Shown: in pieces, positions 1 to 21,448 of the stretch
How the letters are laid out: each line of letters starts with the position of its first letter
Position numbering within the stretch: position 1 is the first letter of the stretch
Source: Candidatus Humimonas hydrogenitrophica
GTDB taxonomy: Bacteria; Gemmatimonadota; Gemmatimonadetes; Palauibacterales; Palauibacteraceae
Direction of reading: 5' to 3'
DNA length: 64,000 nucleotides
Assembly (NCBI GenBank): GCA_947581615.1
Contig: CANPVD010000053.1
Span: 89,737-153,736, forward strand
Notes under the pieces: generated by a model
What the model was told of the DNA's origin: nothing
Database searches by the model: none
The model's input: the letters and a program-made list of their open reading frames with translations, nothing else
Translations under genes and position numbers: made by a program

Positions 1-437
1 ACACGGCGGGGGGAAACCTGGCGGGCTTCAAGGACACGGGCTGGCGCGCCTTCGGCGGCGCCAACTGGGCCTCCGACGACTGGTTCGCCAACGGCCGGTA
101 CCAGGCGGACATCGGGCCCGGCGCGGCGGACATGGGCGGAGACCTGTCCGCCGGGCGTCGCTTCGGCGGGAAGAGCTGGCTCGCCCTTCGAGCCACCTCC
201 ACCCGCAGCTTCGGGGAGTATCGGCTCGGTGACCAGCGGCTCACCGGCGCGGGGCTCATCGGGTCCGCTCCGGTCGGCGACCTCCTGTTCACGGGGAGCG
301 CGGGCTTCTACCGGCTGTCCTACACGGACCGGCCGGCGATCAAGGACTGGACGCAGTTCCGGATGTTCGTGGGAGTGGGATACCACTTCGGCAGCGAGCC
401 GACGGTCGCGTCGGTCCTCAAGGGGTACGGCCAATGA
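1..437 (+). CDS. 3' end of a possible outer-membrane beta-barrel protein; the reading frame runs off the window start
   Basis: The frame is open from position 3 to the stop at 437. The C-terminal region shows alternating hydrophobic and aromatic residues (FYRLSYTD, FRMFVGVGYHF) typical of beta-strands. The stop overlaps the start of the next cytochrome gene by ATGA. Confidence 0.35.
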   Translation, partial: TAGGNLAGFKDTGWRAFGGANWASDDWFANGRYQADIGPGAADMGGDLSAGRRFGGKSWLALRATSTRSFGEYRLGDQRLTGAGLIGSAPVGDLLFTGSAGFYRLSYTDRPAIKDWTQFRMFVGVGYHFGSEPTVASVLKGYGQ

Positions 438-2155
438 GCCTGCGCTGGCCAACACGAATCGTCCTGGCGCTCGCCTTCCTGACCCTGGCCGGCGGGCCCT
501 GGGCCGGGTCGCCCCTGACCGGCCAGGACACGACGGTCGTCCAACGCCCCTTCCCGCACGCCCGGCACGTCGGACTCTTCCCGACCTGCGACGGCTGTCA
601 CGCGGGGATCCTGAGCGGGGACTCGGCGAAGTGGCTCTCCGTGGGGCCCGAGTTCTGCCAGGTGTGCCACGATGGCGAGACGGTGAAGAAGATCGAGTGG
701 ACGACGCCCGAGCACCCTCGGACGAACCTGCACTTCACGCACGCCAAGCACGCGGCCGGATTCGAGCAGCTCGGGGCGCCGCCCGCGAAGTGCCAGACCT
801 GTCACCAGGCCGAAGGCGGCACGAAGCCCATGCAGGTGGTGATGGCCAGGCCGGCGCTGTGCGGGGCGTGCCACTCACCCGACCACCTGTCGCTCCAGAA
901 CGACTGCGCCACGTGCCACGATCCGCTCACCCGGGCGTCGAACCTGAGGACGTCCGACATCGCGGGCTTCCCCAAGCCCCCCTGGCACGATTCGGCCGAC
1001 TTCCTCTTCCAGCACGGAGCGGAGGCCTCCGCCTCGGGCGCGGTGTGCTCCGTGTGCCACGCCCGCCAGAGCTGCACCCGCTGCCACCTGAACGCGTCCC
1101 AGGTGGAGCCGATCCAGGCCCTCGGGCCGGATCCGCGCGTCGCACAGCTGGTCCGCGGGCGAGCGGGCCAGTGGCCCGAGCCGCCCAGCCATCGCGACCG
1201 GGACTGGGTCCTGTCCCACGGAGCGACGGCCCGGACCTCGCTGTCCACGTGCGCCGACTGCCACGCGGCCTCGAGCTGTGCGACCTGCCACCGCGGACCG
1301 CGGGCCGGGTTCCTTTCGCAGATGCCGGGGGCCGTCGAGGGAGGACCGTCCGGGGTGCGCATCCACGCGTCGCCGCCGGGGCACGGGCCGGGCTTCGCCA
1401 CCCAGCACGGGGCGACCGCGGCCTCGGGTGCCATCGACTGCTCCGCGTGTCACACGAAGGTCCAGTGCACGGCCTGCCATCGCGGGGGCGTGCCCTCCTC
1501 GCCGGCCGTCCACGCCCCCGGCACGGGCGGATCGGGAGGAGGGAACGAGCCAATGAGCCTCGGGAGGCCGAGCGCGCGGCCCGGGGAGCCGACGACGCCG
1601 AGGGACGAGCGTCTCCCGCTGCGGAGGCCCGAGCCGCGCCCGGTGGTGTGGTTCGCCTCGCTGCGGACGACCGTTCGGACCGGGCCACGAACCGTGCCGG
1701 ACACCACGCCCCCGACGTCCACGACCTCTCGAGGAAACGGAGGACAGGCGGGCCCGCGGACCGGCGGCTTCCACCCACCCGATTACGTGCTCCGACACGG
1801 CGCCGACGCCTTCTCGCGTCGAGTCCAGTGCTCGGAGTGCCATTCGGCCCAGGCCTTCTGCCTGACCTGCCACGAGAAGATGGGCATCGGGCGGGGAGGC
1901 ACGGCCGGCAGCCCCGCCTTCCACGATGCCGAGCCCAACTGGCTGATCGTGCACGGGCGGGCCGCCCGACAGAACCTGGAGACCTGCACCTCCTGTCACC
2001 AGCAGAGCTCCTGCCTGCGCTGTCACAGCGCGAAGTTCGGATTCCGCATCGACCCGCACGGTCCGGGCTTCGATCCCAACCGCATCGCCGACCGCAGCAC
2101 GATCTCCTGCGGAATCTGCCACTTCTCCATCCCCAAGGGCGGAGGCGGGGGCTGA
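434..2155 (+). CDS. 16-haem c-type cytochrome of the doubled-CxxCH type, with an N-terminal signal peptide or anchor
   Basis: There are 16 CxxCH motifs, several arranged as closely paired units (CSVCHARQSCTRCH, CADCHAASSCATCH, CSACHTKVQCTACH, CSECHSAQAFCLTCH, CTSCHQQSSCLRCH). The N-terminus is hydrophobic (IVLALAFLTLAGG). The middle of the protein contains a low-complexity Pro/Thr/Arg-rich linker. Confidence 0.85.
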   Translation: MSLRWPTRIVLALAFLTLAGGPWAGSPLTGQDTTVVQRPFPHARHVGLFPTCDGCHAGILSGDSAKWLSVGPEFCQVCHDGETVKKIEWTTPEHPRTNLHFTHAKHAAGFEQLGAPPAKCQTCHQAEGGTKPMQVVMARPALCGACHSPDHLSLQNDCATCHDPLTRASNLRTSDIAGFPKPPWHDSADFLFQHGAEASASGAVCSVCHARQSCTRCHLNASQVEPIQALGPDPRVAQLVRGRAGQWPEPPSHRDRDWVLSHGATARTSLSTCADCHAASSCATCHRGPRAGFLSQMPGAVEGGPSGVRIHASPPGHGPGFATQHGATAASGAIDCSACHTKVQCTACHRGGVPSSPAVHAPGTGGSGGGNEPMSLGRPSARPGEPTTPRDERLPLRRPEPRPVVWFASLRTTVRTGPRTVPDTTPPTSTTSRGNGGQAGPRTGGFHPPDYVLRHGADAFSRRVQCSECHSAQAFCLTCHEKMGIGRGGTAGSPAFHDAEPNWLIVHGRAARQNLETCTSCHQQSSCLRCHSAKFGFRIDPHGPGFDPNRIADRSTISCGICHFSIPKGGGGG

Positions 2156-2446: not shown

Positions 2447-2917
2447 ATGGTAGAGCCTACGGCCTCGCCGCTGGCCACGGACCCGCTGGCGTGGCGACCG
2501 GCCTTCGGGGAGTACGTCCTCGCCGGCAGTGTCGCCTTGCTGCTCCTGGGCGCCCTGTCGGCGGTCGTGCTGTACCTGATCCCTTCTGGACCGCTGCAGC
2601 TAGAGGAGCTCCAGCCGGCCTACCAGGTCGCGCCGGAGGCCAACTTCCCGGTCAACAGCAGTCGAATCGTCAACTGGGGAGACCAGGTCATCCTCGTCGT
2701 CCGCACCGGGGACCAGTCGTATTCCGCGCTGCAGGGCACGGCACCGACGGACGGCTGCATCCTGAACTGGAACGAGACGTCGCTCCGCATCGTCTCACCC
2801 TGCACCCACCTGGTCTACGACCTGCGTGGCAACGTGGTCCGGGGCCTCTCGACCATCCCCCTCCAGCACTACCCGGTGTTCATCCGCGATGGCGTCGTCT
2901 ACGTGGCGAGGCCGTAG
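2447..2917 (+). CDS. Small membrane-anchored, Rieske-like protein in the iron-sulfur-subunit position upstream of cytochrome b, with an incomplete [2Fe-2S] ligand set
   Basis: It has an N-terminal transmembrane helix (VALLLLGALSAVVLYLI). The C-terminal beta-rich domain contains DGCILNW and SPCTHLVYD, which resemble Rieske box I (CTHLGC), but there is no CPCHGS box II. The gene lies directly upstream of cytochrome b with a 1-nt gap. Confidence 0.5.
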   Translation: MVEPTASPLATDPLAWRPAFGEYVLAGSVALLLLGALSAVVLYLIPSGPLQLEELQPAYQVAPEANFPVNSSRIVNWGDQVILVVRTGDQSYSALQGTAPTDGCILNWNETSLRIVSPCTHLVYDLRGNVVRGLSTIPLQHYPVFIRDGVVYVARP

Positions 2918-2918
2918 A

Positions 2919-4202
2919 ATGATGTCCCGAGACCCGAAGGCCGCCAGGGAATGGTTCGTCCGCTTGTGGGCGGACCTGAAGGCCAGCACGGACGCGAGCC
3001 TGCTGGTGATCCTCCGCTTCGTGGGCCTCCTGTACGGGCCGCTCGACACCCGACTTCCGATCGGCAAGGCCTTTCGTAAGGCTCTGCGGCACCGGCTCTC
3101 GCCCGAAGCGGGGTGGCGTCAAGCGTTCGGCGGAATCGCGTATCTGCTGTTCATCATCCTTGTGGTCACGGGCGTGCTCCTGTCCTTCTACTACCGTCCT
3201 TCCACGCAGGAGGCCTACCAGAGCATCCAGCACATCGTGTCCGGTGTCTCCTTCGGCTGGCTCATGCGCGACCTGCACGTGTGGGCGGCGAACCTCGTGG
3301 TCCTGGGAGCGCTGCTCCACATGGCCCGCGTGTTCTTCGGCGCGGCCTACAAGCCTCCGCGTGAGACCAACTGGATCGTGGGCGTGCTCCTGCTGTTCAG
3401 CGTGTTCGCGTTCGGCGCGACGGGCTACCTCCTGCCATGGGACCAGTGGTCGTACTGGACCGTGACCGAGGGACTGGACATCCTCGCCCGCACGCCCCTC
3501 GTGGGCGGCTGGCTGGTCAGGATCCTGCGGGCCGATCCGATCGTGTCCGGCGCCACCTTGAGCCGGTTCTTCGCCATCCACGTGATCGTGCTCCCGTGGC
3601 TCGTGCTCGGCCTCCTGGCCCTGCACTTCGCCCTGGTACGGAAGCACGGCGTCGCGCCACGCGTGAGCGCGAACCGTACGGGCAGGACGGGCGTTCCGTT
3701 CTTCCCGTACCACTTCCTGCGGATGGTGATCACCGGAACGCTCGTCGTGGCCGTGGCCCTGACGGCCGCCCTCCTGTTCCCGCGTCCGGTCGCCGCTCCG
3801 GCCAACCCCGCGCAGCCCCCGGGAATGCTCTTCTCGACCTGGATCCTGGCCGACGTCTCTCGAGCCCTGATCTACTACCTGGGCGGCTGGGGCTTCGGCG
3901 CGTTCCTGCTGCTCGGAGCCGGAATGGTGCTCCTGCCCATCTTCGATCGCTCTCCAGAGCGTCGGCTCCGCCGCCGACCGATCGTGGCCGCCCTGGGCGT
4001 CCTGTTCTTCCTGACCTTCGCGACCGCCTGGGGGGCCGGGTGGCGACTCCGCTCCATTCCGACCACGACGTCGGGTGAGCTGACGCCGTTCCAGAAGCAG
4101 CCCACCGGAGCTACGCCGGGCGCTCCCCTGCCGAGTATCGCGCCTGCCAGCCGGCCGGCGACGTCCGGGTCGGACACGACGAATTCCGGGGGTGCGCCGT
4201 GA
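2919..4202 (+). CDS. Cytochrome b of a bc/b6f-type quinol oxidoreductase (b6-type His spacing)
   Basis: The helix B motif is HVWAANLVVLGALLH (His-His spacing of 14) and the helix D motif is HVIVLPWLVLGLLALH (spacing of 15, as in b6). The Qo-like motif PWDQWSYW is present. There are multiple transmembrane helices and a low-complexity C-terminal tail. Confidence 0.9.
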   Translation: MMSRDPKAAREWFVRLWADLKASTDASLLVILRFVGLLYGPLDTRLPIGKAFRKALRHRLSPEAGWRQAFGGIAYLLFIILVVTGVLLSFYYRPSTQEAYQSIQHIVSGVSFGWLMRDLHVWAANLVVLGALLHMARVFFGAAYKPPRETNWIVGVLLLFSVFAFGATGYLLPWDQWSYWTVTEGLDILARTPLVGGWLVRILRADPIVSGATLSRFFAIHVIVLPWLVLGLLALHFALVRKHGVAPRVSANRTGRTGVPFFPYHFLRMVITGTLVVAVALTAALLFPRPVAAPANPAQPPGMLFSTWILADVSRALIYYLGGWGFGAFLLLGAGMVLLPIFDRSPERRLRRRPIVAALGVLFFLTFATAWGAGWRLRSIPTTTSGELTPFQKQPTGATPGAPLPSIAPASRPATSGSDTTNSGGAP

Positions 4203-5494
4203 GGGCCGCCGTGCTGACCGCGCTGCTCACTGCCACCTTCGTCGCTGCACCAGCGGCGGGAAGGCCGGCTGCGGCTCGCCCTGCCGGACGTACCGCTCCG
4301 ACGCTTCCGGCGCAGGTCCCCGGAGCCACGGCCGACACCGCCAACGGCTGCCTGGCATGCCACGCGGCACAGCGGCGAGCGGCGACCGAAGGGATCCACG
4401 CGGAGCACGGCGTCACCTGCGTGAGCTGCCACGGCGGTGACCCGGCCGCCGTCACGCTGCCCCGGGGACACAGCGGGCACTTCGTCGGCACGCCGGACAA
4501 GGCGGCCACGGCGGAGCTGTGCGGCTCGTGCCACTCGGATCCCGACCGGATGCGGGAATACGGCCTGCCCACAGGACAGCTGGCCCAGTTCCGCTCCAGC
4601 AAGCACGGGCAACTGCTCTTCGGCCAGCACAACAACGACGTGCCGACATGCACGGACTGCCACGGCACGCACATCATCTACCCGCCCTACGATGCCCGTA
4701 GCCGCGTCTATCCGACGAACATCCCGGGGACCTGCGCGAGCTGCCACTCGGACCCGAAGCTCATGGCGAAGTACCACATTCGCACGGACCAGTTCGCGCA
4801 GTTCCGTAACAGCGCGCATGGCGTAGCCCTGTTCCAGGACCAGAACTTCGCGGCGCCCACCTGCGTCGGTTGTCACGGCGCGCACTCCGAGCTGCCGCCC
4901 ACGGTGACCGAGATCGCCAGCGTATGCGGTCGGTGTCACGTGCTCGTCGAGCAGGAGTTCGCGAAGGGACCGCATGGGGCCGCCGCCCGCGCCGGGAAGC
5001 TGCCGGGCTGCCTGGCGTGCCACAGCAACCACGGCACCGAACGCGTCCCGGCGGACAGCATCAGCGCCACGTGCGACCGGTGCCACGGATCCGACTCCCA
5101 GGTTCACCAGTTCGCGGTCGACATCCAGCACCGCGTCGTGCAGGCCACGGCGGACATCCAGTCGGCCGAGCGGGCCATCGACCAGATGGCCGCGGCCGGC
5201 GAGCGCGTCGGCTACTATCGATTCCGGTACAAGTCGGGCCTGACGTACTTCCGCGAGATCGCCCAGAAGCAGCACCGCCTCAACCTGGACACACTCGACG
5301 ACCTCGCTCGTCGGGTGCGGTCGGTGTCGATCGACCTGGACTCACGGGCGAAGGGCACCCAGGAAAGTCGTTGGGAGCACAAGCTCCTGCTCCTCCCGGT
5401 GTGGTTCCTGTCGCTGTCCGCGGTCGTGCTCGCTCTGCTGGCGCTGCGCGGTCTCCGGAAGAGGGACCGGGACTCGGACTCTTCCGAGACGTAG
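4199..5494 (+). CDS. 9-haem c-type cytochrome with a C-terminal transmembrane anchor
   Basis: There are 9 CxxCH motifs, many in the form CxxCHSDP...Y...F..S.HG. A C-terminal hydrophobic helix (LLLLPVWFLSLSAVVLALLAL) is present. The GTG start overlaps the cytochrome b stop as GTGA. Confidence 0.85.
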   Translation: MRAAVLTALLTATFVAAPAAGRPAAARPAGRTAPTLPAQVPGATADTANGCLACHAAQRRAATEGIHAEHGVTCVSCHGGDPAAVTLPRGHSGHFVGTPDKAATAELCGSCHSDPDRMREYGLPTGQLAQFRSSKHGQLLFGQHNNDVPTCTDCHGTHIIYPPYDARSRVYPTNIPGTCASCHSDPKLMAKYHIRTDQFAQFRNSAHGVALFQDQNFAAPTCVGCHGAHSELPPTVTEIASVCGRCHVLVEQEFAKGPHGAAARAGKLPGCLACHSNHGTERVPADSISATCDRCHGSDSQVHQFAVDIQHRVVQATADIQSAERAIDQMAAAGERVGYYRFRYKSGLTYFREIAQKQHRLNLDTLDDLARRVRSVSIDLDSRAKGTQESRWEHKLLLLPVWFLSLSAVVLALLALRGLRKRDRDSDSSET

Positions 5495-5497
5495 GCT

Positions 5498-7522
5498 ATG
5501 TGGCCGACCATACGCCGGCGGATCGCTCAATGGGGCATCGTCCTGCTCCCGATCGTCATCCTGGCGGTCATTCTGATCAGCGTAGGCACGGTCGGCTTCG
5601 TGGAGGTCTCCAGCCAGCCATGGTTCTGCAAGAGCTGCCACATCATGAAGCCGTACTACCAGTCGTGGTCCACCTCATCACACCGCGACGTGCCCTGCAT
5701 CAAGTGCCACATCCCGCCCGGGGTGAAGTCCGAGGTGAGCCAGAAGATCCAGGCCGCCAACATGGTGGTGAAGTACTTCACCGGCGCCTACGATACGCGG
5801 CCGTGGGCGGAGATCAGCGACGCTTCCTGTCTGCGATCGGGCTGCCACGCCAGCCGTCTCATCGAGGGTGCGGTGGACTTCCACGGAGTCCGGTTCGATC
5901 ACGCCCGGCATCTGGGGGAGATTCGGCGTGGCATGCAGCTCCACTGCACGAGCTGCCACTCGCAGATCGTGCAGGGAACACACATCGCCGTGACGGAGGG
6001 CACCTGCTTCCTGTGTCACTTCAAGGACCGGCCGGCTGACCAGCCCCTGGGCGGCTGCACCGGGTGCCACCCATCGCCGCCGAGGGTCACCTCTCCCGAG
6101 GGATTCGTGATCGATCACCCCCAGTTCGTACGGGACCGGATCGACTGCCTGTCCTGCCACAACAAGGTCACGCACGGAACGGGTAACGTCGACGAAGCGC
6201 GCTGCGTGAGCTGCCACAACGAGCCCGAGCGTCTGGCCAAGATCAACGAGACCACGCTCCTGCACACGGTTCACGTCACGCAGCACAACATCGCGTGCAT
6301 CCAGTGCCACACCCCCATCGAGCACCGCATCGTTTCTCTCACCACGACCGTGGAGCTGGACTGCCGGAGCTGCCACAAGTCCGTGCACGTGGATCAGCAG
6401 AAGATGTTCGCCGGCATCGGGGGACACGGGGTGGAGCGCACGCCGAGCTCCATGTACAAGGCACGCGTCTCGTGCGTGGCGTGTCACGACCAGGCCAGGA
6501 GCCTTCCGGGACACGACACGGTCAACGTGGCCAGCGAGTCCTCGTGCCTCTCCTGTCACGGCATCAAGTACGCCAACGTGCTGCCCGGCTGGCAGAAGGA
6601 GATGAAGCGGAAGGTGGGCCTCGTAGCCCCGGTGGTGAGCGCGGCCCGATCCGCCGCGGCGACGGTCCCCCTGGCGCGACGTAACGTGGCCGACAGTCTC
6701 CTCGGTCTCGCGCAGTCGAACGTCGAGTTCGTGCGCGAGGGCAAGGGCGCCCACAACGTGGTCTATGCGGATCAGCTCCTCCGCGCGGCCCTCAGGCTCG
6801 TGCGGCAGGCCGTGCAGGAGGGCCGCCTGCCGTACCGGATGCCGACCGTCGATCTCGGCCCGCAGGTGAGCGAGACCATGTGCCTGCAGTGCCACCTGGG
6901 CATCGAGCAGCAGAAGGGCACGTTCCAGGGCGCGTCGTTCGATCACACGGCCCACGTGTTGCGCGCGGGGCTGCAGTGTGGTGACTGCCACACGCCGTTC
7001 TCGAACCACGGCGGCATCACCCTCGCGTCGACCGCGAGCTGCAACGCCTGTCATCATCCGGTCGTGCAGCCCCGGAACTGCGCCACCTGCCATGAAGGTC
7101 CGGGTGGGGCGCCGTCCCAACCCATCACCCTGCCCCAGGGGACCTTCCCGCACGGGCCCCACATCGAGGCCAACCTCGCCTGTACGGCGTGCCACACGGC
7201 GCCGATGATGAGCGCGCGGGACCTCCAGTGTGACAACTGCCATGCGCAGCACCACCAGCCGACCGTCACCTGCCTGAACTGCCACCGGGGCGGAGTCCTG
7301 GCCCTGCACGATCGCCAGAACCACGTCCTGTGTGCGCAGTGTCATACCTCGGTCCCGGCGTTGACGCACTGGACGCGGCAGGTGTGCACGGTGTGCCACG
7401 CGGACAAGACCGACCACAACCCCGGACGGCCGTGCAACGTGTGCCACCGGGTGCCGGCCATGGGAACGACCCGCGCGGCCGTGCCGGCCGGCGGCGGCGA
7501 GGAATCGCCTCAATTCCACTAG
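5498..7522 (+). CDS. NapC/NirT/NrfH-family quinol dehydrogenase head fused to a large multihaem extension (about 21 CxxCH motifs plus one CX4CH)
   Basis: An N-terminal transmembrane helix is followed by CKSCH...PCIKCH, the NapC/NrfH signature. A further 19 CxxCH motifs and one CLRSGCH motif follow. The protein is 674 aa, and there is a 4-nt gap from the preceding gene. Confidence 0.85.
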   Translation: MWPTIRRRIAQWGIVLLPIVILAVILISVGTVGFVEVSSQPWFCKSCHIMKPYYQSWSTSSHRDVPCIKCHIPPGVKSEVSQKIQAANMVVKYFTGAYDTRPWAEISDASCLRSGCHASRLIEGAVDFHGVRFDHARHLGEIRRGMQLHCTSCHSQIVQGTHIAVTEGTCFLCHFKDRPADQPLGGCTGCHPSPPRVTSPEGFVIDHPQFVRDRIDCLSCHNKVTHGTGNVDEARCVSCHNEPERLAKINETTLLHTVHVTQHNIACIQCHTPIEHRIVSLTTTVELDCRSCHKSVHVDQQKMFAGIGGHGVERTPSSMYKARVSCVACHDQARSLPGHDTVNVASESSCLSCHGIKYANVLPGWQKEMKRKVGLVAPVVSAARSAAATVPLARRNVADSLLGLAQSNVEFVREGKGAHNVVYADQLLRAALRLVRQAVQEGRLPYRMPTVDLGPQVSETMCLQCHLGIEQQKGTFQGASFDHTAHVLRAGLQCGDCHTPFSNHGGITLASTASCNACHHPVVQPRNCATCHEGPGGAPSQPITLPQGTFPHGPHIEANLACTACHTAPMMSARDLQCDNCHAQHHQPTVTCLNCHRGGVLALHDRQNHVLCAQCHTSVPALTHWTRQVCTVCHADKTDHNPGRPCNVCHRVPAMGTTRAAVPAGGGEESPQFH

Positions 7523-7539: not shown

Positions 7540-8883
7540 ATGCGCTCCGTGGTTGGATGGATCTGGCTCCTGGGCGCTTTCGCGCCCGGGCTCGTCGGAG
7601 TCCGGACGGTGTCGGCGCAGGCGACCAGGCCGGCGTCCACGCAGGTCGTGGAGTGCACCAAGTGCCACGCCGATCACGACCTCCTCGCCGCCAACGCGAC
7701 CGGTCCGCGGCGGGACTCGGCCCTCTACGTGACCGGTGCGGTCCTGGACAGCTCCGTGCACCGATCGTTGCAGTGCACGGACTGCCACCGGGGCTTCGAG
7801 GCAGGCTTCCCCCATCAGGTCAGCCAGGTGGTGGTCCCCTGCTCCACCTGCCACGAGAAGGAGGGTCGGGACTGGGCGGCCTCCATTCACGCCCGGAACG
7901 CGGAAATGGTCGGGGATGCGCCCACCTGCGTCGGGTGCCACGGTAGCCACGGGATCCGTGCCGCCACCGACCCCCGGTCGCCGATCTACCCCCTCAACGT
8001 GGCCGGACTGTGTAGCCGCTGCCACGCGGACCCCCGTATCATCGGGCGCTACTTCACGGGGCCGGGCGACCAGGAGGCCCGCATCGCCGCGACCGCCTTC
8101 CCGAAGAGCGTCCACGGCATCGCGCTCACCCGCGACGGGCTCGTGGTTTCGGCCACCTGCTCGGACTGCCACCGGGCGCACCTCATCCTGCCGCCCGATT
8201 CGGCGCGGTCCTCGGTCAATCGGGCCAACATCCCGCGGACCTGCGGGAAGTGCCACGCCGGCGTGGTCAAGGTGTTCGAGGCCTCCGCCCACGGGCCCGA
8301 TTACCCGCCGCAGCCCGGGATCGCCGAGGGGCACCCGCGGCCGGTGTGCATCGACTGCCACTCCGCGCACGAGATCGTCCGCGCCGACCGGCCGGCCTGG
8401 CAGCGCAGCACGGTCCGGAAGTGCGGGAGCTGCCACGAGCACCTGTACGAAACCTACTTCGAGACCTACCACGGCCAGGTGACGCAGCTGGGATCCAACC
8501 TCGCCGCCAAGTGCAGCGACTGCCACACGGCGCACGACATGCGCTCCCCCACGGACCCCAGGTCCACGGTGTTCGCGGCCAACCTGGTCCACACCTGCAG
8601 CCAGTGCCACGAGGGCGCCAACACCAACTTCGTCAAGTACTACGCGCACGGTGACCCCACCCAGCGCACGCGGTACCCGCGCCTGTACTGGCCGTGGCTG
8701 CTCATGACCGGGCTGCTGGTGAGCGTCATGGCCTTCTTCGTGATCCACAGCGTGCTGTGGCTGATCCGGAACGGCATCGAGCACCGGCGGGGCGGACACG
8801 GCTCCGACGGACCCGGGGGCGGAGTGCCGGGCGGCGGCGCACCCGCGGCGGAATCCCCCACGAGCGGAGGGAGCGCGTCATGA
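7540..8883 (+). CDS. 11-haem c-type cytochrome with a C-terminal transmembrane anchor; paralog of the 9-haem protein
   Basis: There are 11 CxxCH motifs and the same CxxCH.DP...Y module seen in gene 4199-5494. A strong ribosome-binding site (GGAGGGAGG) lies upstream. A C-terminal transmembrane helix (WPWLLMTGLLVSVMAFFVI) is present. Confidence 0.85.
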   Translation: MRSVVGWIWLLGAFAPGLVGVRTVSAQATRPASTQVVECTKCHADHDLLAANATGPRRDSALYVTGAVLDSSVHRSLQCTDCHRGFEAGFPHQVSQVVVPCSTCHEKEGRDWAASIHARNAEMVGDAPTCVGCHGSHGIRAATDPRSPIYPLNVAGLCSRCHADPRIIGRYFTGPGDQEARIAATAFPKSVHGIALTRDGLVVSATCSDCHRAHLILPPDSARSSVNRANIPRTCGKCHAGVVKVFEASAHGPDYPPQPGIAEGHPRPVCIDCHSAHEIVRADRPAWQRSTVRKCGSCHEHLYETYFETYHGQVTQLGSNLAAKCSDCHTAHDMRSPTDPRSTVFAANLVHTCSQCHEGANTNFVKYYAHGDPTQRTRYPRLYWPWLLMTGLLVSVMAFFVIHSVLWLIRNGIEHRRGGHGSDGPGGGVPGGGAPAAESPTSGGSAS

Positions 8884-9731
8884 GCAGGCGGGCGATGGAC
8901 GCCGCGGGCCGAGGCGCGGGCCCGTACATCCGGCGCTTCACCGGCTTCCAGCGGACCCTTCACGTCATGGTGATCGTGTCCTTCCTGGGGCTGGTCGCCA
9001 CCGGGCTGCCGCTGCGCTTCGCGGCCGCGCCCTGGGCCCGCGGGGTGATGGACCTGTTCGGGGGCCCGGTGGCCGCGGGCCTGATTCACCGCATGTGCGC
9101 GATCATCACCTTCGGCTACTTCTTCGCGCACGTCATCCAGATCACCTACCGGATGCTGAGAGTCGAGGGACCGAAGAAGCTGCTGTGGGGGCCGGACTCC
9201 ATGGTCCCCCAGCCCAGGGACATCCGCGACCTCATCCAGATGTTCAAGTGGTTCTTCGGGAAGGCACCGCACCCGGAGTTCGAGCGGTTCAGCTACATGG
9301 AGAAGTTCGACTACTGGGCGGTGTTCTGGGGAGTGGCCATCATCGGGACCTCGGGGCTCTTCCTGTGGTTCCCGACCTTCTTCGCGCACTTCATGCCGGG
9401 GTGGGTGTTCAACATCGCGACCATCGTGCACGGCGACGAGGCCCTGCTGGCCACGTCGTTCATCTTCACGATCCACTTCTTCAACGTGCACCTGCGGCCG
9501 GAAAAGTTCCCGATCGACACCGTGATCTTCACGGGCCGGGCCACCACGGAGTACATGCAGGAGGAGCACGGCCTCGAGTACGAGCGGCTCCGGCGCGACG
9601 GCCGGGTCGAGGAGCGGGTGGTGCCGTCGGCCTCGCGCGCGGCCTACCTGTGGTCGGTGACGGTGGGCTTCATCGCCGTCGGGATCGGTACGATGCTCAT
9701 CGTCCTCGTCCTGTGGGCTCTCCTGGCATGA
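8880..9731 (+). CDS. Dihaem b-type cytochrome membrane subunit, FdnI/HydC (Ni_hydr_CYTB)-like
   Basis: There are five predicted transmembrane helices with conserved His residues inside the helices (RTLHVMVI, GLIHRMC, FFAHVIQ, IVHGDEA, FTIHFFNVH). The start overlaps the upstream cytochrome stop as ATGA. Confidence 0.8.
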   Translation: MSRRAMDAAGRGAGPYIRRFTGFQRTLHVMVIVSFLGLVATGLPLRFAAAPWARGVMDLFGGPVAAGLIHRMCAIITFGYFFAHVIQITYRMLRVEGPKKLLWGPDSMVPQPRDIRDLIQMFKWFFGKAPHPEFERFSYMEKFDYWAVFWGVAIIGTSGLFLWFPTFFAHFMPGWVFNIATIVHGDEALLATSFIFTIHFFNVHLRPEKFPIDTVIFTGRATTEYMQEEHGLEYERLRRDGRVEERVVPSASRAAYLWSVTVGFIAVGIGTMLIVLVLWALLA

Positions 9732-9735
9732 TGCA

Positions 9736-11520
9736 GTGCGACGCCCCGACGTAGTCCTCGTCCACCCTCCCAGCGTCTACGACTTCCGTCGCAGGGCGAT
9801 CTTCTACGGCCCGATCAGCGACGTGATACCGTCGTCGACGGTGTTCGAGATGTACCCCATCGGCTTCGCGACCCTGGCGGCCTTCCTCCGGCGCCACGGG
9901 CGGCGCGTGCGCATCGTGAACCTCGCCCTGCGCATGATGCGGAGCCGGCGCTTCCGGCCCGAGCGCTACCTGCGGCGACTCGAGCCCCGGCTGTTCGGCA
10001 TCGACCTCCACTGGCTGCCCCACGCGCACGGCGGTCACGAGGTCGCGGCCCTCCTCAAGCGGCTGCACCCCGACATTCCGATCGTGTTCGGCGGTATCTC
10101 GGCCAGCTACTTCCACGAGGAGCTCATCCGCGACCCTTCCGTGGACTTCGTCCTGCGCGGCAGCGTCACGGAGCCCTGCCTCCTGGAGCTCGTCCGGGAG
10201 CTGGAGGGAGATCGCCGATTCGAGCGGGTCCCGAACCTCACCTGGAAGCAGGACGACCGGGTGAGAGTCAATCCGGCCTCCTTCGTGCCCCTGTCCTTCG
10301 ACGATCTCGACTACGATCTGGGCTACATGATCGGGCAGGTGGTGGGGCGCCTGGACTTCTGGACGAACGTCCCGTTCCACGCCTGGTGGCGGCACCCGAT
10401 CACCGCCGTGTTCACCGTGCGCGGCTGCGGAAGGGGCTGCGTGACCTGCGGCGCCTCGGAGGAAGCCTTCCGCGGCTTCATGCCCGGCATGCATCCCCTC
10501 CTGAGGAGCCCCGCGTCCATCGCCCGCCAGGTCCGGGACCTGGCCGAGCTCACGCGCGCCCCGATCTTCCTGGTGGGGGACATCAACGACGGCGGGCCCA
10601 AGTACGCCGAGGCCGTCGTCGAGGCCCTGAGAGCCACCGGCGTCTCCAACCGACTCGTGTTCGAGTTCTTCCGCCCCCCGCCGGGGGCGTTCGTGGCGCA
10701 CGTCGAAGCCTGCCTGCCGCATTGGGGCGCCGAGCTCTCACCGGAGAGCCACCACGAGGAGATACGGGCGAGGCTGGGCAAGGCCTCCTACACCAACGCG
10801 GAGCTGGAAGAGGGGATCGAGACGATCCTGGGGGGACGCTGCGAGCAGCTCGACCTGTTCTACATGATCGGGCTCCCGGGACAATCCTACCGCCACGTCA
10901 TGACCACCGTGGATGCCATCGAGGCGATCTTCCGACGCCTGGACGCGCGCGTGTCCGCCTTCATCACGCCCATGGGCCCGTTCATCGATCCGGGGAGCGT
11001 CGGCTTCGAGCACCCCGAAGCCACCGGCTACCGGCTGCGCGCCCACACCCTGGCCGAGCACCGGGCGCTCCTCGAGCAGGGGGACTGGGAGTCGATCCTC
11101 AACTACGACACCGACGCCATGACCCGGACGGAGATCGTGGACGCCACCTACGACGCCGCCGAGCGCCTCAACGACCTCAAGCTGCGCTACGGACGGATCG
11201 AGCCCGCCCGCGCCGCCGGCGTGGCCCGGCGCCTGACGGAGGCGCGTGCGCTCCGCCGCCGCATCCGGGAGGCGCAGGGCCGGCTCGACCCGGAGGCCCG
11301 GCTCGCGTTGCTGGGAGAGATCCGGGCCTACTCGGAGTCCACCGTCAACGACAAGGCCGAGCTGTTTCCGCCGGGAGCCTTCCTGCGAAACTTCCGCCTG
11401 GGCGGGATCCTGCGGCTCCTGGCGAGAGATGTCCTGCGCCGCGGAACTCGCCGACCCGAAACTCGCCGACTCGGGTCCGCCCTCCAGGACGCCCCGGCCG
11501 AGACCGCCTCCACGCCCTGA
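9736..11520 (+). CDS. B12-binding-domain radical SAM protein
   Basis: An N-terminal B12-binding-like domain is followed by the CGRGCVTC (CxxxCxxC) radical SAM motif. The GTG start lies 4 nt after the cytochrome b stop. Confidence 0.8.
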   Translation: MRRPDVVLVHPPSVYDFRRRAIFYGPISDVIPSSTVFEMYPIGFATLAAFLRRHGRRVRIVNLALRMMRSRRFRPERYLRRLEPRLFGIDLHWLPHAHGGHEVAALLKRLHPDIPIVFGGISASYFHEELIRDPSVDFVLRGSVTEPCLLELVRELEGDRRFERVPNLTWKQDDRVRVNPASFVPLSFDDLDYDLGYMIGQVVGRLDFWTNVPFHAWWRHPITAVFTVRGCGRGCVTCGASEEAFRGFMPGMHPLLRSPASIARQVRDLAELTRAPIFLVGDINDGGPKYAEAVVEALRATGVSNRLVFEFFRPPPGAFVAHVEACLPHWGAELSPESHHEEIRARLGKASYTNAELEEGIETILGGRCEQLDLFYMIGLPGQSYRHVMTTVDAIEAIFRRLDARVSAFITPMGPFIDPGSVGFEHPEATGYRLRAHTLAEHRALLEQGDWESILNYDTDAMTRTEIVDATYDAAERLNDLKLRYGRIEPARAAGVARRLTEARALRRRIREAQGRLDPEARLALLGEIRAYSESTVNDKAELFPPGAFLRNFRLGGILRLLARDVLRRGTRRPETRRLGSALQDAPAETASTP

Positions 11521-14638: not shown

Positions 14639-15223
14639 ATGGACGGGTCCGGGACGGCCCCACCCGCATCCGTGAGCGGGAGGGGCGCGGTCCGGATCCG
14701 GGACGCGTCCGTCGCGGCCTGGGTGGAGAAGCACGGAGCCGAGCTGCGCCGGCACGTGGAGCGACTGCTCCCGGGGCCGGACGCCGCGGACGATGTGCTC
14801 CAGACCGTGTGGATCACGGCGCACCGCAAGCCTCCCGAGGCACGCGAGGGACCGGCGCTTCGAGCCTGGCTGTACCGGGTCGCCACCCATGCCGCCCTCG
14901 ACCGCCTGGGCTCCGAGCGTCGACGGAGGCGCGCGCTGGAGGGCCGGGCCCTGTTCGTGGCCCCGGAGGCGCGTCCGGCGCCCGACGCGGCCCTGGAAGG
15001 CCTGGGTGAGGGAGCCCGCCTCCGGGTCCGGGAGCACGTGGCCGCGCTGCCCCCGAAGCAGCGGCAGGCCGTATGGATGCGGTGGGCCGAGGGCCGCAGC
15101 TACGCCGACATCGCCGCGCGGCTCGGGTGCTCCGAGGAGAGCGCCCGCGGCAACGTCTACCAGGGGATGAAGCGGCTCCGGTCGGAGCTGTTCGGATTGT
15201 GGCAGGAGGAGGCGGGAGCATGA
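14639..15223 (+). CDS. ECF (sigma-24 family) RNA polymerase sigma factor
   Basis: Region 2 (DDVLQTVWITAHR) and region 4 with a helix-turn-helix (RSYADIAARLGCSEESARGNVYQGMKRLR) are recognisable. Confidence 0.85.
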   Translation: MDGSGTAPPASVSGRGAVRIRDASVAAWVEKHGAELRRHVERLLPGPDAADDVLQTVWITAHRKPPEAREGPALRAWLYRVATHAALDRLGSERRRRRALEGRALFVAPEARPAPDAALEGLGEGARLRVREHVAALPPKQRQAVWMRWAEGRSYADIAARLGCSEESARGNVYQGMKRLRSELFGLWQEEAGA

Positions 15224-15924
15224 GCGGACAGCCCTGCTGGGTTTCGGAGGAGGGCCTCGTGGCCTTCGTGGCCGGCGAGCTCGAGCCCGAGGCCGAGGTG
15301 GCGGTGGCCCGTCACCTGGCCGAGTGCGATGCCTGCCGGGAAGAGGCGGTGCAGTTCCGGCTGCTCGGAGCGGCGATGGCGGAGGAGGCGGGCGCCGAGG
15401 CGGTGCGCTGGCACGCCTTCTCGAGCCCGTTCGGACGCATGTACGTGGCGGCCACCCCGGGGGGACTGGTCCGGGTATCCTGGCAGCAGCCCGGGGACGA
15501 CGCCTTCGAGGCCGAGCTCCACGACCTGCTGCCGGGCCGGCCGGTCCTGCACGATCCGACCGATGAGGTCCTGCTCGAGACGGAGCGTCAACTGACCCAG
15601 TACTTCGCCGGCGAGCGGGAGTCCTTCGACCTCCCCGTGGACCTCGAGACCCTCCCCACCTTCTCGCGGAGGGTTCTCGAGGCGCTGCGGGAGGTCGAGT
15701 TCGGTAAGGTGGTGGCCTACTCGGACCTGGCCCGCCGGATCGGACGGCCCCGGGCGTCGAGGGCCGTGGGCAATGCCCTGGGACGGAACCCGGTGGCGAT
15801 CGTCGTGCCCTGTCACCGGGTCGTGCGTCAGGACGGGTCGCTGGGTGGCTACGGCGGCGGGGTGGAGTACAAGGAGCGCCTGCTGGCGGTCGAGGGTCGC
15901 CAGGACCTGCTCCGGGCGGGCTGA
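15220..15924 (+). CDS. Anti-sigma factor with a zinc-finger (ZAS) domain fused to a full-length O6-alkylguanine-DNA alkyltransferase (Ogt/MGMT)
   Basis: The N-terminus reads C6...H32-x3-C36-x2-C39 (HLAECDAC), matching the ZAS motif. The C-terminus carries the MGMT helix-turn-helix and the active site IVVPCHRVV. The start overlaps the sigma factor stop as ATGA. Confidence 0.8.
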   Translation: MSGQPCWVSEEGLVAFVAGELEPEAEVAVARHLAECDACREEAVQFRLLGAAMAEEAGAEAVRWHAFSSPFGRMYVAATPGGLVRVSWQQPGDDAFEAELHDLLPGRPVLHDPTDEVLLETERQLTQYFAGERESFDLPVDLETLPTFSRRVLEALREVEFGKVVAYSDLARRIGRPRASRAVGNALGRNPVAIVVPCHRVVRQDGSLGGYGGGVEYKERLLAVEGRQDLLRAG

Positions 15925-16508: not shown

Positions 16509-18569
16509 TCACAGGCCGATCCCCCGCAGCGTGAGGTTCAGCACGAATCCGACGCCGAACGCGAACGTCACCGCGAACGCGAAGATCCCGGCCGCGATCT
16601 TCGGTCCCCGCTCCTTCCACATCATGAGGAACTGCGCCACACAGGGTACGAAGAGGGTGAGCGTCACCGCCGACACGAGGAGTCCGACCATGTCCAGGGC
16701 GCCCGTCCGCTGGAGCTCGTACAGGCCGGCGGCCCCGTAGTCGCGCCGGAAGAAACCGAGCAGGAACACCGACGCCGTCTGCCGGGGGAGGCCCAGCGCG
16801 CCCACCACCGGGTGGAGGAGGTCCAGGACCCTGCCCAGGAGCCCGGTGACCTGGCCCGCCCACAGGAGCACGCTGGCCAGCATGAACAGCGGAATGACCT
16901 CCAGCAGGTACCAGTGCAGCCGCGTGGCGGTCTTCCGGACCACGTTGGACGCGCGCGGCACGCGCAGGGGAGGTAGCTCCATGTGGAAGGACGCCGAACG
17001 CCCCGGCAGGACCCGCGCCCCCACCGCCCCGATCAAGAGGAAGGTGCCGGCCAGGACCGCCACCCACAGCCCGAGTGCCACGGGCTGCCCCGAGAGGATG
17101 GCCAGGATCACACCGAGCTGGGCCGAGCAGGGGATCGCCAGGGCGAGGAGCACCGTGGCCAGGATCCTCTCGCGCCGCGTCTCGAGCGTCCGGGCGACCA
17201 TGGTGGCCATGGTGTCGCACGCGAACCCGAGCACGATGGGGATCACCGCCTGTCCGTTGAGGCCGATCCTCTTGAACAGCCGATCCACGAGCAGGGCCAG
17301 CCGCGGGAGGTAGCCGCTGTCCTCGAGCACGGAGAAGAACAGGAAGAAGGTGGCCACGATCGGCAGGATGATGGCGATCGCATAGCGGAGGCCCAGGGTG
17401 AGGAGCCCGTAGTCGCCGACCCACAGCCCCCGTAGCCACGGCCAGGGAATCCCCCGGAACAGGCCCTCGAGGAACGGATTCACGTGACCCAGGAAGAGGG
17501 AGCGCTCCAGCCAGTCCACCAGGATTCCGGCCCCGAAGTGTCCCACGAACTCGTACAGCCCCAGCCACAGGACCACCAGTAGCACCGGGATCCCCGGCAG
17601 GGGCCGCCCCAGCCAGCGGCCGAGCCTCTCGGCCACCCTCACCCGGCGTTCACCGGTGGCCTCGAGCACGTCCCCGGCCACGGAGCGCGCCACCTCGTGA
17701 CGCTCCACCGCCGACCGGTAGGCCGTCCCGTCTCGCGTCCCGGCCGCGGCCCGGCGCAGAGCCTCCAACGCCCGCCGTCCTCCGTCCGTCTCGGCGGCCT
17801 CCACCATCGCCCGCGTGTCCTCATCTCCCTGGAGGAGGAAGGACGCGATGGCTCGCCGGGGCATGGCATAGCGGCCGGACAGGGCGCCCTCCAGGGCCTC
17901 GATCGCCGCGGCCACGTCGGGGCGCCGCCCCAGCGGCTCGGGCGGCTCACCCGCGCGGATGGCTCCGAGGATCGCCCGCTCCAGCCCTTCCACCCCCTGC
18001 CCCGTCACCGCCACGATCGGGACGACGTGCAGGCCGAGTCGACCTGCGAGGAGGTCCGGTCTGAGCTCCAGGCCGAGACGTCCGAGCTCGTCCACCATGT
18101 TCAGGGCGAGCACGAGGGGCTTTCCGAGCTCCATCAGTTCGAGCGTCAGGGGAAGGGACCGTGCCACGCAGCGAGCCTCGACGACGTGGACCAGGGCGTC
18201 GATGCCCTCCTCGAGCACCAGTCGCCGGGAGACGCGCTCCTCTTCGGTGGTGGGCGACAGCGAGTAGAGCCCGGGCGTGTCCACGACGCGGACGACGTGT
18301 CCGTCGAGTCGCCCCACCCCGTATGTCACCTCGACGGACGTTCGTGGATAGTTGGAGACGGTGACGTAGCGCCCGGTGAGGCGGTGGAAGAGCGTGCTCT
18401 TGCCGACGTTGGGCGCCCCGACGAGAGCCACGCGCCAGGCGGCCTCCTCCGGCGAGGTCGCGGTCGGGCCCGGCGCCCTCCCTTCCGGCCGGGACGGAGG
18501 GCACATGGGACAGGCTCTCGACCCCTCGAGGGCGGTGCGTGCGATTGGAGCGTTCGGTCGCAGCCTCAT
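16509..18569 (-). CDS. feoB: Ferrous iron transporter FeoB
   Basis: The GTPase G1 motif GAPNVGKSTLF is followed by a multi-transmembrane permease domain. A roughly 45-aa N-terminal extension containing CPMCPP precedes the GTPase domain. Confidence 0.9.
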   Translation of the reverse strand: MRLRPNAPIARTALEGSRACPMCPPSRPEGRAPGPTATSPEEAAWRVALVGAPNVGKSTLFHRLTGRYVTVSNYPRTSVEVTYGVGRLDGHVVRVVDTPGLYSLSPTTEEERVSRRLVLEEGIDALVHVVEARCVARSLPLTLELMELGKPLVLALNMVDELGRLGLELRPDLLAGRLGLHVVPIVAVTGQGVEGLERAILGAIRAGEPPEPLGRRPDVAAAIEALEGALSGRYAMPRRAIASFLLQGDEDTRAMVEAAETDGGRRALEALRRAAAGTRDGTAYRSAVERHEVARSVAGDVLEATGERRVRVAERLGRWLGRPLPGIPVLLVVLWLGLYEFVGHFGAGILVDWLERSLFLGHVNPFLEGLFRGIPWPWLRGLWVGDYGLLTLGLRYAIAIILPIVATFFLFFSVLEDSGYLPRLALLVDRLFKRIGLNGQAVIPIVLGFACDTMATMVARTLETRRERILATVLLALAIPCSAQLGVILAILSGQPVALGLWVAVLAGTFLLIGAVGARVLPGRSASFHMELPPLRVPRASNVVRKTATRLHWYLLEVIPLFMLASVLLWAGQVTGLLGRVLDLLHPVVGALGLPRQTASVFLLGFFRRDYGAAGLYELQRTGALDMVGLLVSAVTLTLFVPCVAQFLMMWKERGPKIAAGIFAFAVTFAFGVGFVLNLTLRGIGL

Positions 18570-20381: not shown

Positions 20382-20798
20382 ATGACAAAGGTGAGACTCG
20401 CGGCCACGATGGCCGTCCTGTTCACCCTGGCCCTGGTCGGAGCGGCCGCCGCGCGCGAGCCGCACCCGGCGGTGGCGACGTGGGGAAAGGACGCCAGGTT
20501 CGACACGGCCGCCCAGATCACCGAGGCCATGATCGATGCGGGACGGAAGATCTTCCACGGACCGGGCAGCTGCTTCGCCTGCCACGGACAGAATCTCCAG
20601 GGGACCGCGATCGCCCCGCGTCTGAGCGACTCCACCTGGAAGAACGGAGATGGGAGCTACGCCGACATCGTCAAGATCATCACGAACGGCGTGTCGGGAA
20701 CCGCCATGGTGTCGCACCCGGGAGGCATCAGCGATGAGCAGCTCCTCGAGGTGGCGGCCTACGTGTGGGCGGTGAGCCACGGGAAGGCCAAGATCTAG
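20382..20798 (+). CDS. Periplasmic monohaem class-I cytochrome c
   Basis: A signal peptide, a single CFACHG motif and a downstream Met (TAMVSHPGG) are present. The protein is 138 aa. Confidence 0.8.
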   Translation: MTKVRLAATMAVLFTLALVGAAAAREPHPAVATWGKDARFDTAAQITEAMIDAGRKIFHGPGSCFACHGQNLQGTAIAPRLSDSTWKNGDGSYADIVKIITNGVSGTAMVSHPGGISDEQLLEVAAYVWAVSHGKAKI

Positions 20799-20914: not shown

Positions 20915-21448
20915 TCAGTGGTTCTGCGCGCTCACCGCGGCGGGCTCCTCGCCCGTCACGACGATCGTCCCCTTCATTCCAAACGACTGGTGCGGCACGC
21001 ACAGGTAGGAGTAGGTGCCGGACGGGAAGTACCGGGGGTCGATCACGAGCTGGTACGTCGCCCCCTTGCTCACGAGGAAGGGGCTCATCTCGGGAGGCGG
21101 TCCCTTGGCGTCGAACGCGGCGCGGCTGGCCGCCATGATCGTGGGGAAGCTGCGGGAGGAGAGTCGTCCGCCCGCCGGCTCGTTCGCGAACTCGACGTCG
21201 TGGGGCGTGTCGGTCGTGTTGACCCACCGCACCGTGTCGCCCGGCACGACCGTCACGTTGGACGGGACGAACTTGAAGTTCTCCATCTTGATCGTGACCG
21301 TTCGGGGGCGCCGGGTGTCCTGCTGGGCCGCCGCGCTCGTGGCGGTGATCGCCAGCGCGACCAGCACGGCGCCGATCACGAGCTGCAGCGTCCAGAATAG
21401 ATCTATCTGTCGTCGCGACACTTTCGGTCTCCGGACTGTTCGAGTCAT
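20915..21448 (-). CDS. Membrane-anchored type-1 copper protein (plastocyanin/pseudoazurin-like cupredoxin)
   Basis: An N-terminal transmembrane helix is present. The copper ligands are His (TPHDVEF) and C-x2-H-x4-M (YLCVPHQSFGM). Confidence 0.8.
   Translation of the reverse strand: MTRTVRRPKVSRRQIDLFWTLQLVIGAVLVALAITATSAAAQQDTRRPRTVTIKMENFKFVPSNVTVVPGDTVRWVNTTDTPHDVEFANEPAGGRLSSRSFPTIMAASRAAFDAKGPPPEMSPFLVSKGATYQLVIDPRYFPSGTYSYLCVPHQSFGMKGTIVVTGEEPAAVSAQNH

Follow-up and report, generated by a model that had tools for sequence, protein, structure and literature searches.

The locus studied here raises the question of what role a single polypeptide with 22 haem sites might play at the inner membrane of a Gemmatimonadota bacterium. 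We analysed a 64,000-nucleotide stretch of DNA from Candidatus Humimonas hydrogenitrophica (contig CANPVD010000053.1, positions 89,737 to 153,736; the whole stretch is called the window below), which encodes a 674-residue c-type cytochrome, hereafter the 22-haem protein. A first, sequence-only reading had described it as an unusual quinol-oxidising wire of its own that might span the periplasm, headed by a domain of the NapC/NirT/NrfH type. The inner-membrane quinol oxidases usually considered for extracellular electron transfer are CymA, ImcH and CbcL/CbcBA, from Proteobacteria and Geobacter (PMC6295460, PMC13591261). Our analysis suggests, at about even confidence, that the 22-haem protein is the menaquinol-oxidising entry of a multi-subunit inner-membrane chain for extracellular electron transfer. 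Its family would add a fourth kind to this list, with one transmembrane helix, an NrfH-type head, 18-22 haems and coupling to a cytochrome b. What is new here is an NrfH-headed membrane cytochrome of 18-22 haems in an operon derived from Rieske and cytochrome b genes; it is uncharacterised, although uncultured phyla of soil and subsurface have it in abundance. Taken by itself the protein is a moderate surprise; its combination with a complex that lacks both the Rieske cluster and the PEWY motif is the main point of bioenergetic interest.

An NrfH-like head on a chain of haems

The gene starts with ATG, and its product carries 22 haem-binding motifs, 21 of the form CXXCH and one of the form CX4CH (C111-LRSG-C116-H117), which together use up all 44 of its cysteines. 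This recount agrees with the 2 + 19 + 1 sites of the sequence-only reading. When the protein was shuffled 20,000 times, CXXCH occurred 0.21 times on average and three times at most, compared with 21 times in the actual sequence. With 0.63/0.49/0.89, the GC content at the three codon positions has the pattern that real genes typically show in a window with 71% GC.

A hydropathy scan identified a single N-terminal transmembrane helix, and the AlphaFold2 model placed an N-terminal helix at residues 3-38 with a predicted local distance difference test score (pLDDT) of 76-92. Because RRR precedes the helix, the haem part is predicted by the positive-inside rule to face the periplasm. One N-terminal transmembrane helix followed by a periplasmic haem domain is the layout of NapC/NirT proteins. 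The compact tetrahaem form (four CXXCH in about 150-200 residues in total) was not found, the protein having 22 sites in 674 residues; the first four lie within residues 44-154, and the third of these is the CX4CH site.

The head was assessed by profile, sequence and fold comparison. The Pfam model PF03264, for the NapC/NirT N-terminal region, matched residues 15-104 with 46.1 bits against a gathering cutoff of 24.1, the match spanning only profile positions 10-105 of 174. Among NCBIfam models the best was that of NrfH (TIGR03153), followed by TorC and NapC/NirT. A phmmer search aligned residues 22-83 with the NrfH chain 2j7a_C, and Foldseek matched the head to chain 2j7a_O over 107 columns (TM-score 0.40 on the target). 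The haem 1 motif is of the CXXCHxM type (C44KSCHIM50), and Lys83 pairs with Lys82 of Desulfovibrio vulgaris NrfH in the phmmer alignment to 2J7A. Both Met50 and Lys83 were invariant over 93 sequences from several phyla, and the two NrfH hallmarks, CXXCHxM and Lys83, are near-invariant across the family. In one Eisenbacteria locus (L063), haem site 1 reads CGSICH (CX3CH), another spacing variant at a conserved site. The NapC/NirT/NrfH-type head proposed from the sequence is thus borne out by profile scores, a sequence match to an NrfH structure entry and a fold match, and the proviso that this region might fail to score as NapC_NirT is answered by the Pfam result.

In D. vulgaris, NrfH (PDB 2J7A/2VR0) serves the nitrite reductase NrfHA as its tetrahaem menaquinol dehydrogenase. 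The 22-haem protein shares with it the single N-terminal transmembrane helix, the CXXCH-x-Met arrangement at haem 1 and the lysine aligned with Lys82. Unlike NrfH, which has 4 haems in 159 residues, it has 674 residues and a CX4CH third site, does not keep Asp89, has no separate NrfA partner and is encoded in a Rieske-like/cytochrome b operon. No NrfA gene was found in the window; an OcwA/NrfA-like segment is instead fused in cis. Shewanella CymA and Geobacter ImcH are likewise membrane-anchored multihaem proteins with a NapC/NirT-like segment, and both connect menaquinol in the membrane with the cytochromes of the periplasm (PMC6295460, PMC13591261). CymA has 4 haems, and ImcH has three transmembrane helices and 7 haems (PMC13591261, PMC6295460). 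In contrast to the three N-terminal helices and seven CXXCH motifs of ImcH, the 22-haem protein has one helix and 22 sites; it falls outside both the CymA and the ImcH families as surveyed in PMC6295460, its own family having 18-22 haems and a co-operonic cytochrome b. By analogy, the protein may work most like NrfH, CymA or ImcH, the quinol dehydrogenases of the NapC/NirT type.

The anatomy of the haem chain was examined in an alignment of 77 loci-derived proteins (loci numbered L001 onward). Virtually all sequences, whatever their phylum, had haem sites 1-18, and these sites were collinear across 76 loci that represent at least 7 phyla. Sites 19-22 (residues 592, 612, 630 and 646) were found in 43-44 of the 46 Gemmatimonadota loci and were mostly absent from other phyla. 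The column of site 3 held C...CH in all 76 homologues (76/76), as CX4CH in Gemmatimonadota, Bipolaricaulota, Binatia and Marinimicrobia and as CXXCH in Eisenbacteria, Hydrothermus and Acidobacteriota. Since the motif is kept in every homologue and takes the CXXCH form in some phyla, there is good evidence from these alignments that the CX4CH site binds haem, and its earlier designation as a variant haem site holds.

The structure was modelled twice. AlphaFold2 gave a poor model from a Gemmatimonadota-only alignment (pLDDT 63, predicted TM-score (pTM) 0.41); with other phyla added to the alignment, pLDDT rose to 71.5 and pTM to 0.48. In this second model, residues 361-500 reached pLDDT >90; they comprise a three-helix bundle and, after it, a haem domain. 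The best sequence match in the PDB was OcwA (6i5b_A), aligned with residues 226-432 (phmmer E 3.7e-8), and the best Foldseek match was again OcwA (6i5b, E 7.9e-4), with further matches to NrfA-type proteins, octahaem reductases, MccA and NrfH. Residues 477-607 matched the ActA chains of Alternative Complex III (ACIII; 8k9e_A, 6lod_A, 6f0k_A) and cytochrome c7 by phmmer, the similarity to ActA being weak (E 2e-5 to 0.16). By these sequence and fold matches the protein is therefore a mosaic, in which a head like that of NrfH is followed by a module of the OcwA/NrfA type and a tail resembling c7/ActA.

OcwA of Thermincola potens (6I5B), a nonahaem terminal reductase related to NrfA, shares with the central module a helical region with a conserved G-x-H-N motif; OcwA, however, is soluble and sits on the surface of a Gram-positive cell, whereas the module lies inside a longer protein that is anchored in the membrane. 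ActA (6F0K, 6LOD, 8K9E), the pentahaem subunit of ACIII, is likewise a membrane-associated haem chain; the quinol:cytochrome c oxidoreductase to which it belongs is unrelated in type to bc1. The setting differs from that of ActA in that the similarity is weak and no other ACIII subunits are present.

The central module invites the reading that the protein is a fused NrfH-NrfA-type enzyme, in which a catalytic haem of the module would reduce nitrite, hydroxylamine, sulfite or another soluble substrate while the other haems feed electrons to it. The sequence match of residues 226-432 to OcwA and the fold matches to OcwA, NrfA, octahaem nitrite reductases and MccA fit this idea, but the Foldseek matches to NrfA were weak (E 0.06-0.8, TM-score 0.16), the window contains no nrf accessory genes, and no CXXCK motif occurs in the protein sequence. 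Moreover, the Gemmatimonadota alignment contains 21 invariant histidines outside the haem motifs, so that distal ligands would suffice for haems 2-22, with a candidate for every haem after haem 1 (21/21). With CXXCK lacking and candidate distal histidines sufficient in number, a catalytic NrfA-like enzyme appears unlikely, and we regard the fused-enzyme reading as very improbable. The 22-haem protein looks like a pure electron-transfer chain.

A widespread and uncharacterised family

A word-indexed search found 2069 relatives of the 22-haem protein, an exhaustive HMMER search of 50%-identity representatives returned 402 clusters at E<1e-30, and a scan of GTDB species genomes located relatives in 271 species. 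The nearest relative was 89-92% identical. The best 120 were 55-92% identical and 644-736 residues long, all full length except one partial sequence. The named matches all came from metagenome-assembled genomes (MAGs) or single-amplified genomes, assigned to Gemmatimonadota, Eisenbacteria, Bipolaricaulota/Acetothermia, Binatia, Acidobacteriota, Fraserbacteria, WOR-3, Hydrothermus, Deferribacteres and Marinimicrobia. Their source labels were limited to 'NapC/NirT family cytochrome c', 'cytochrome c3 family protein' or 'hypothetical'. The unusual polypeptide of the sequence-only reading thus stood as to its 22 sites, but not as to its rarity: the family is uncharacterised rather than rare.

The identical 674-residue protein was present on at least 14 contigs, and the three listed places, in JGI, ENA and Logan assemblies, have the same neighbours. 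These data bear on the concern, raised together with the original description, that the long reading frame might be an assembly or frameshift artefact; two genes, a short one of the NapC/NrfH type and a multihaem one, would then have been joined by error. Nothing was found in support of such an artefact; the only related observation was that a nanopore-derived relative (L001) has frameshifts in neighbouring genes. Identical copies from three independent sources, the lengths of the best homologues and the collinear sites 1-18 refute it, and we give it practically no weight.

Full-text literature searches found no paper describing the 22-haem family or its operon in Gemmatimonadota, Eisenbacteria or other phyla known from MAGs, or the cluster-less Rieske form described below; the only analogues found were Geobacter Cbc6, a Rieske/cytochrome b cluster of Methanoperedens, and Caldithrix.

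Some family members have other architectures. In P0178, P0242 and P0266 (1321-1441 residues), about 860 residues that form a polytopic membrane domain precede the NrfH-like head and the haem core. Members of 1300-1441 residues were considered as cytochrome b fusions, which would have proved that the two proteins associate; this was rejected, the fusion partner being this unrelated polytopic domain. In P0134 and P0149 (about 900 residues), the helical-bundle/haem module is duplicated.

Degenerate Rieske and cytochrome b partners

We searched 80 related loci with the window proteins by tblastn. The order Rieske(-like), cytochrome b, 9-haem and 18/22-haem gene was kept in Gemmatimonadota, Eisenbacteria, Bipolaricaulota, Binatia, Acidobacteriota, Hydrothermus and Marinimicrobia, and the 9-haem gene always lay immediately 5' of the 22-haem gene. 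In the window, the GTG start of the 9-haem gene overlaps the stop codon of the cytochrome b gene by 4 nucleotides, and a gap of 3 nucleotides separates it from the 22-haem gene. This comparison makes a stand-alone wire improbable: a conserved operon has the gene in fourth place, therefore its product probably belongs to a larger complex as one of the subunits. Only 18 of the haems form the conserved core.

The Rieske-like proteins were compared in an alignment of 55 loci, 39 from Gemmatimonadota with a Rieske-like gene and 16 from other phyla. The window protein lacks all four [2Fe-2S] ligands (DGCIL at 2750-2764 and SPCTH at 2795-2809), and only its two disulfide cysteines remain. Both cluster-binding boxes were lost in all 39 Gemmatimonadota loci (39/39), with CTHxGC changed to xxxDGC and CPCH to SPC(S/T/N...), whereas the canonical CTH..C and CPCH were kept in all 16 loci of other phyla (16/16). 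The best models for the Rieske-like protein were those of the b6f iron-sulfur subunit, and identity within the phylum was 45-70%; for these reasons we take the Gemmatimonadota form, as far as the alignments tell, to be a maintained cluster-less derivative and no pseudogene.

A parallel change was observed in cytochrome b. The Qo motif PEWY is replaced by STWI in the window (3834-3845), and STW[IV] stood in place of P[PE]WY in all 39 Gemmatimonadota loci (39/39), with T sometimes S (S-T/S-W-I/V in most aligned sequences). In the 16 loci of other phyla the motif was PPWY/PEWY in 14 and LPWF/LPFF in 2. The four b-haem histidines (HHHH) were kept in the window and in all 28 aligned Gemmatimonadota cytochrome b sequences, and the window protein retains the motif LPWDQWSYW. 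The Eisenbacteria-type cytochrome b showed a different loss: Rieske and PPWY were kept, and both haem bH ligands were replaced (H-R-H-T/N). Loci with loss of the haem bH ligands were L050, L059, L062, L063, L068, L070, L074, L078 and L079, of the Eisenbacteria type, and L075. In Bipolaricaulota, Binatia and Marinimicrobia, the Rieske boxes, the Qo motif and the four b-haem histidines were all intact. The NrfH-headed cytochrome and the 9-haem subunit were always kept despite the degeneration of their partners. With the Rieske cluster and Qo motif missing in Gemmatimonadota and the bH ligands missing in Eisenbacteria, the Q-cycle machinery appears from these sequences to be dispensable in two complementary ways. 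A complex without Rieske cluster and PEWY motif and a sister form without haem bH, both conserved under selection, amount to a natural experiment on cytochrome b without a Q cycle. Since the Gemmatimonadota cytochrome b has neither an iron-sulfur acceptor nor a Qo motif, we infer that the NrfH-like head is the only intact quinol site on the periplasmic side in this phylum.

The same operon suggests another explanation, namely that the 22-haem protein is the equivalent of cytochrome c1/f, with quinol chemistry taking place only in cytochrome b, the head serving as a mere anchor for a large haem acceptor that would receive its electrons from the Rieske or the 9-haem protein, and the likeness to NrfH reflecting shared anchor ancestry. 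Strict synteny with Rieske and cytochrome b genes across phyla is in line with this, as is the intact state of the Rieske boxes, the PPWY/PEWY motif and the b-haem ligands in the three phyla named above, and multihaem cytochromes are known from the Rieske/cytochrome b operons of Geobacter (Cbc6; PMC2825233) and Methanoperedens (PMC4683180). However, in Gemmatimonadota there is no iron-sulfur donor, and yet the 22-haem protein is fully conserved; the invariant CXXCHxM and Lys83 are not expected of a mere anchor, and the 9-haem subunit, with its C-terminal transmembrane helix, is closer to the c1/f topology. We therefore consider this explanation unlikely.

At the operon level, the nearest analogue is the Cbc6/Ext cluster of Geobacter (GSU2930-2937), which likewise joins a Rieske protein, a b6-type cytochrome b and several multihaem cytochromes. 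That cluster has been described as itself a conserved candidate site of quinol oxidation, with a role that is unknown (PMC2825233, PMC13591261); its cytochromes have 2, 5, 10 and 12 haems (PMC2825233). The window cytochrome b scored 219 bits with the ExtP model, below the 290-bit cutoff, and its C-terminal part is ExtQ-like; none of the Ext-named NCBIfam models matched the 22-haem protein or the other multihaem subunits. The Geobacter Rieske protein is described as an iron-sulfur protein, whereas the cluster ligands are lost in the window's Rieske-like protein.

Because the Rieske ligands and the Qo motif are gone in Gemmatimonadota, we propose the head as the site of menaquinol oxidation. In the preferred reading, the 22-haem protein would be held in the inner membrane by its one N-terminal helix, facing the periplasm, and would most likely form one inner-membrane complex with the Rieske-like, cytochrome b and 9-haem proteins. 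The NrfH-type head would oxidise menaquinol at the periplasmic face; electrons would then run along the haem chain of 18 conserved and 4 lineage-specific haems, pass on to the 9-, 11- and 16-haem cytochromes of the cluster and exit through a putative outer-membrane barrel to an extracellular acceptor, for example humics or minerals of Fe(III)/Mn(IV). The haem motifs, the family, the gene order, the conserved NrfH hallmarks and the loss of the Rieske and Qo features were seen in the sequences; that the head oxidises quinol, that the subunits associate, which way the electrons flow and where they end outside the cell is what we infer.

Several points weigh against this proposal. The TIGR03153 score of the head, 53.8 bits, is far under the curated cutoff of 134.2 and covers only profile positions 6-90 of 138, that is, haems 1-2; the TorC and NapC/NirT scores are likewise far under their curated cutoffs. 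Asp89 of NrfH is replaced: Met89/Val90 are aligned with it (by eye beyond residue 83), and homologues have M, Q or S. The same head occurs in phyla with an apparently fully functional Rieske/cytochrome b pair, where a second quinol site seems redundant. The structure model is of moderate confidence, with pLDDT 54-70 in the head region, and gives no haem geometry or overall length. The barrel-like protein has no Pfam match, and its designation as a barrel rests on sequence pattern only. No metal-respiration marker was found among the other window genes, whose profile looks like that of a peptide-degrading heterotroph.

A bolder version of the proposal is that the four-gene module represents a new class of quinol:multihaem oxidoreductase, derived from Rieske/cytochrome b, in which the Q cycle is dispensable and the NrfH-type haem 1 is the invariant entry, for quinol or coupled to bL, to a haem wire reaching the outer membrane. 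We offer this tentatively, as a possibility well short of an even chance.

Electrons might also flow in reverse: a donor outside the cell or in the periplasm, such as Fe(II), Mn(II), a partner cell or reduced humics, would supply them, and they would reach quinone at the head or, via bL/bH, at the Qi site. In Gemmatimonadota, both b haems and the Qi-side motif LPWDQWSYW are retained, without Qo motif and Rieske cluster. Formate dehydrogenase-N has a transmembrane b-haem path to a quinone site on the N side, and the retained b haems would suit such a path. The neighbourhood also encodes FeoB, a cupredoxin and a monohaem cytochrome c. For Fe(II) oxidisers, it has been proposed that CymA homologues of the NapC/NirT type act as quinone reductases (PMC6295460). 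On the other hand, no Cyc2 or MtoA marker was identified, and direction is not readable from sequence, while the characterised NrfH-type modules oxidise menaquinol; we judge reverse flow to be quite unlikely.

The family is common in mostly uncultured phyla of soil and subsurface (Gemmatimonadota, Eisenbacteria, Binatia and Bipolaricaulota). Under the menaquinol-oxidising reading or its reverse, the predicted metal or humic respiration, or electron uptake, would extend to abundant soil lineages.

Flanking cytochromes and neighbouring genes

The features of the cluster are collected in Table 1. Together, its genes encode sites for at least 58 c-type haems. The longest-frame starts of the cytochrome b, 11-haem and b561 genes (2826, 7330 and 8694) were rejected in favour of those underlying the table (2919, 7540 and about 8880), as indicated by homologue coverage and independent gene calls.

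Table 1. Coordinates of the multihaem cytochrome cluster and of segments within the 22-haem protein
Feature	Position	Strand	Details
C-terminal part of a ~480-aa signal-peptide protein, candidate outer-membrane beta-barrel	3..437	+	frame 3 open from base 3; exceeds left window edge
16-haem cytochrome	434..2155	+	signal peptide, without transmembrane helix
Transmembrane-anchored Rieske-like protein	2447..2917	+	Rieske_2 23.9 bits; b6f PetC 33.6 bits
Cytochrome b6 fused to subunit-IV-like part	2919..4202	+	427 aa; PF00033 162.7 bits; ExtP/b6 NCBIfam matches
9-haem cytochrome	4199..5494	+	signal peptide and C-terminal transmembrane helix; GTG start
22-haem c-type cytochrome	5498..7522	+	674 aa; N-terminal transmembrane anchor, NrfH-like head
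Single N-terminal transmembrane helix of 22-haem protein	5516..5617	+	residues 7-40, hydropathy scan; preceded by RRR
NrfH/NapC-like head	5540..5977	+	about residues 15-160; haem sites 1-4; CKSCH-I-M (Met50), Lys83
CX4CH haem site 3	5828..5848	+	CLRSGCH, residues 111-117
OcwA/NrfA-like multihaem module	6173..6832	+	residues 226-445; three-helix bundle at 361-442
c7/ActA-like haem region	6926..7318	+	residues 477-607
Gemmatimonadota-specific C-terminal extension	7271..7447	+	haem sites 19-22
11-haem cytochrome	7540..8883	+	447 aa; signal peptide; C-terminal transmembrane helix containing His (helix at 8734-8760)
FdnI/b561-type dihaem cytochrome b	about 8880..9731	+	PF01292 35.3 bits; TIGR01583

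Downstream of the 22-haem gene, the pair of 11-haem and b561-type genes is usually nearby in related loci, and both occur together in most of them. By analogy, this pair resembles the CbcBA layout of Geobacter, for which the fourth b-haem histidine has been proposed to lie in the C-terminal domain of CbcA (bioRxiv 10.1101/2021.04.15.440034).

At the left end of the window, the barrel-like gene adjoins the 16-haem gene. Full-length homologues of the barrel-like protein, also adjoining a 16-haem gene, were found in L022, L029, L044 and L046; the pair recurs in L001, L022, L029, L044 and L046, and adjacency was observed in six loci. Its sequence pattern suggests that this secreted protein of about 480 residues is probably an outer-membrane beta-barrel. 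In L008, L011, L022 and L044, an 8-haem cytochrome with a lipoprotein signal (e.g. LFATAC, LALGAC) is encoded 5' of the Rieske-like gene and is a candidate outer-surface cytochrome. The recurring barrel-like and 16-haem genes suggest a possible porin-cytochrome pair, and with the 8-haem lipoprotein of related loci the arrangement resembles a porin-cytochrome layout. Like the CbcBA-like pair, this fits the preferred reading of an extracellular chain.

The closest genome relative (L001, a long-read MAG) contains a frameshifted copy of the 8-haem lipoprotein cytochrome gene (L001:1744-2895), and further frame breaks in its barrel-like gene (L001:3417-4931) and 16-haem gene (L001:4928-6671). The breaks in the latter two genes are absent from the window and are therefore probably sequencing indels in that assembly.

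A B12-binding radical-SAM protein (TIGR04190, 573.5 bits, above cutoff) is encoded at 9736-11520 (+), 4 nucleotides past the b561 gene. In L002-L007, L010, L019 and L040, the TIGR04190 gene lies directly 3' of the 22-haem gene.

Within 10 kb downstream of the cluster are genes for the ferrous iron transporter FeoB (16509-18569, -), a monohaem cytochrome c (20382-20798, +) and a cupredoxin of the plastocyanin/azurin type (20915-21448, -). An ECF-type sigma factor gene (14639-15223, +) is followed by a gene at 15073-15924 (+) whose product joins an anti-sigma zf-HC2 zinc finger to both 6-O-methylguanine DNA methyltransferase domains, an odd domain combination.

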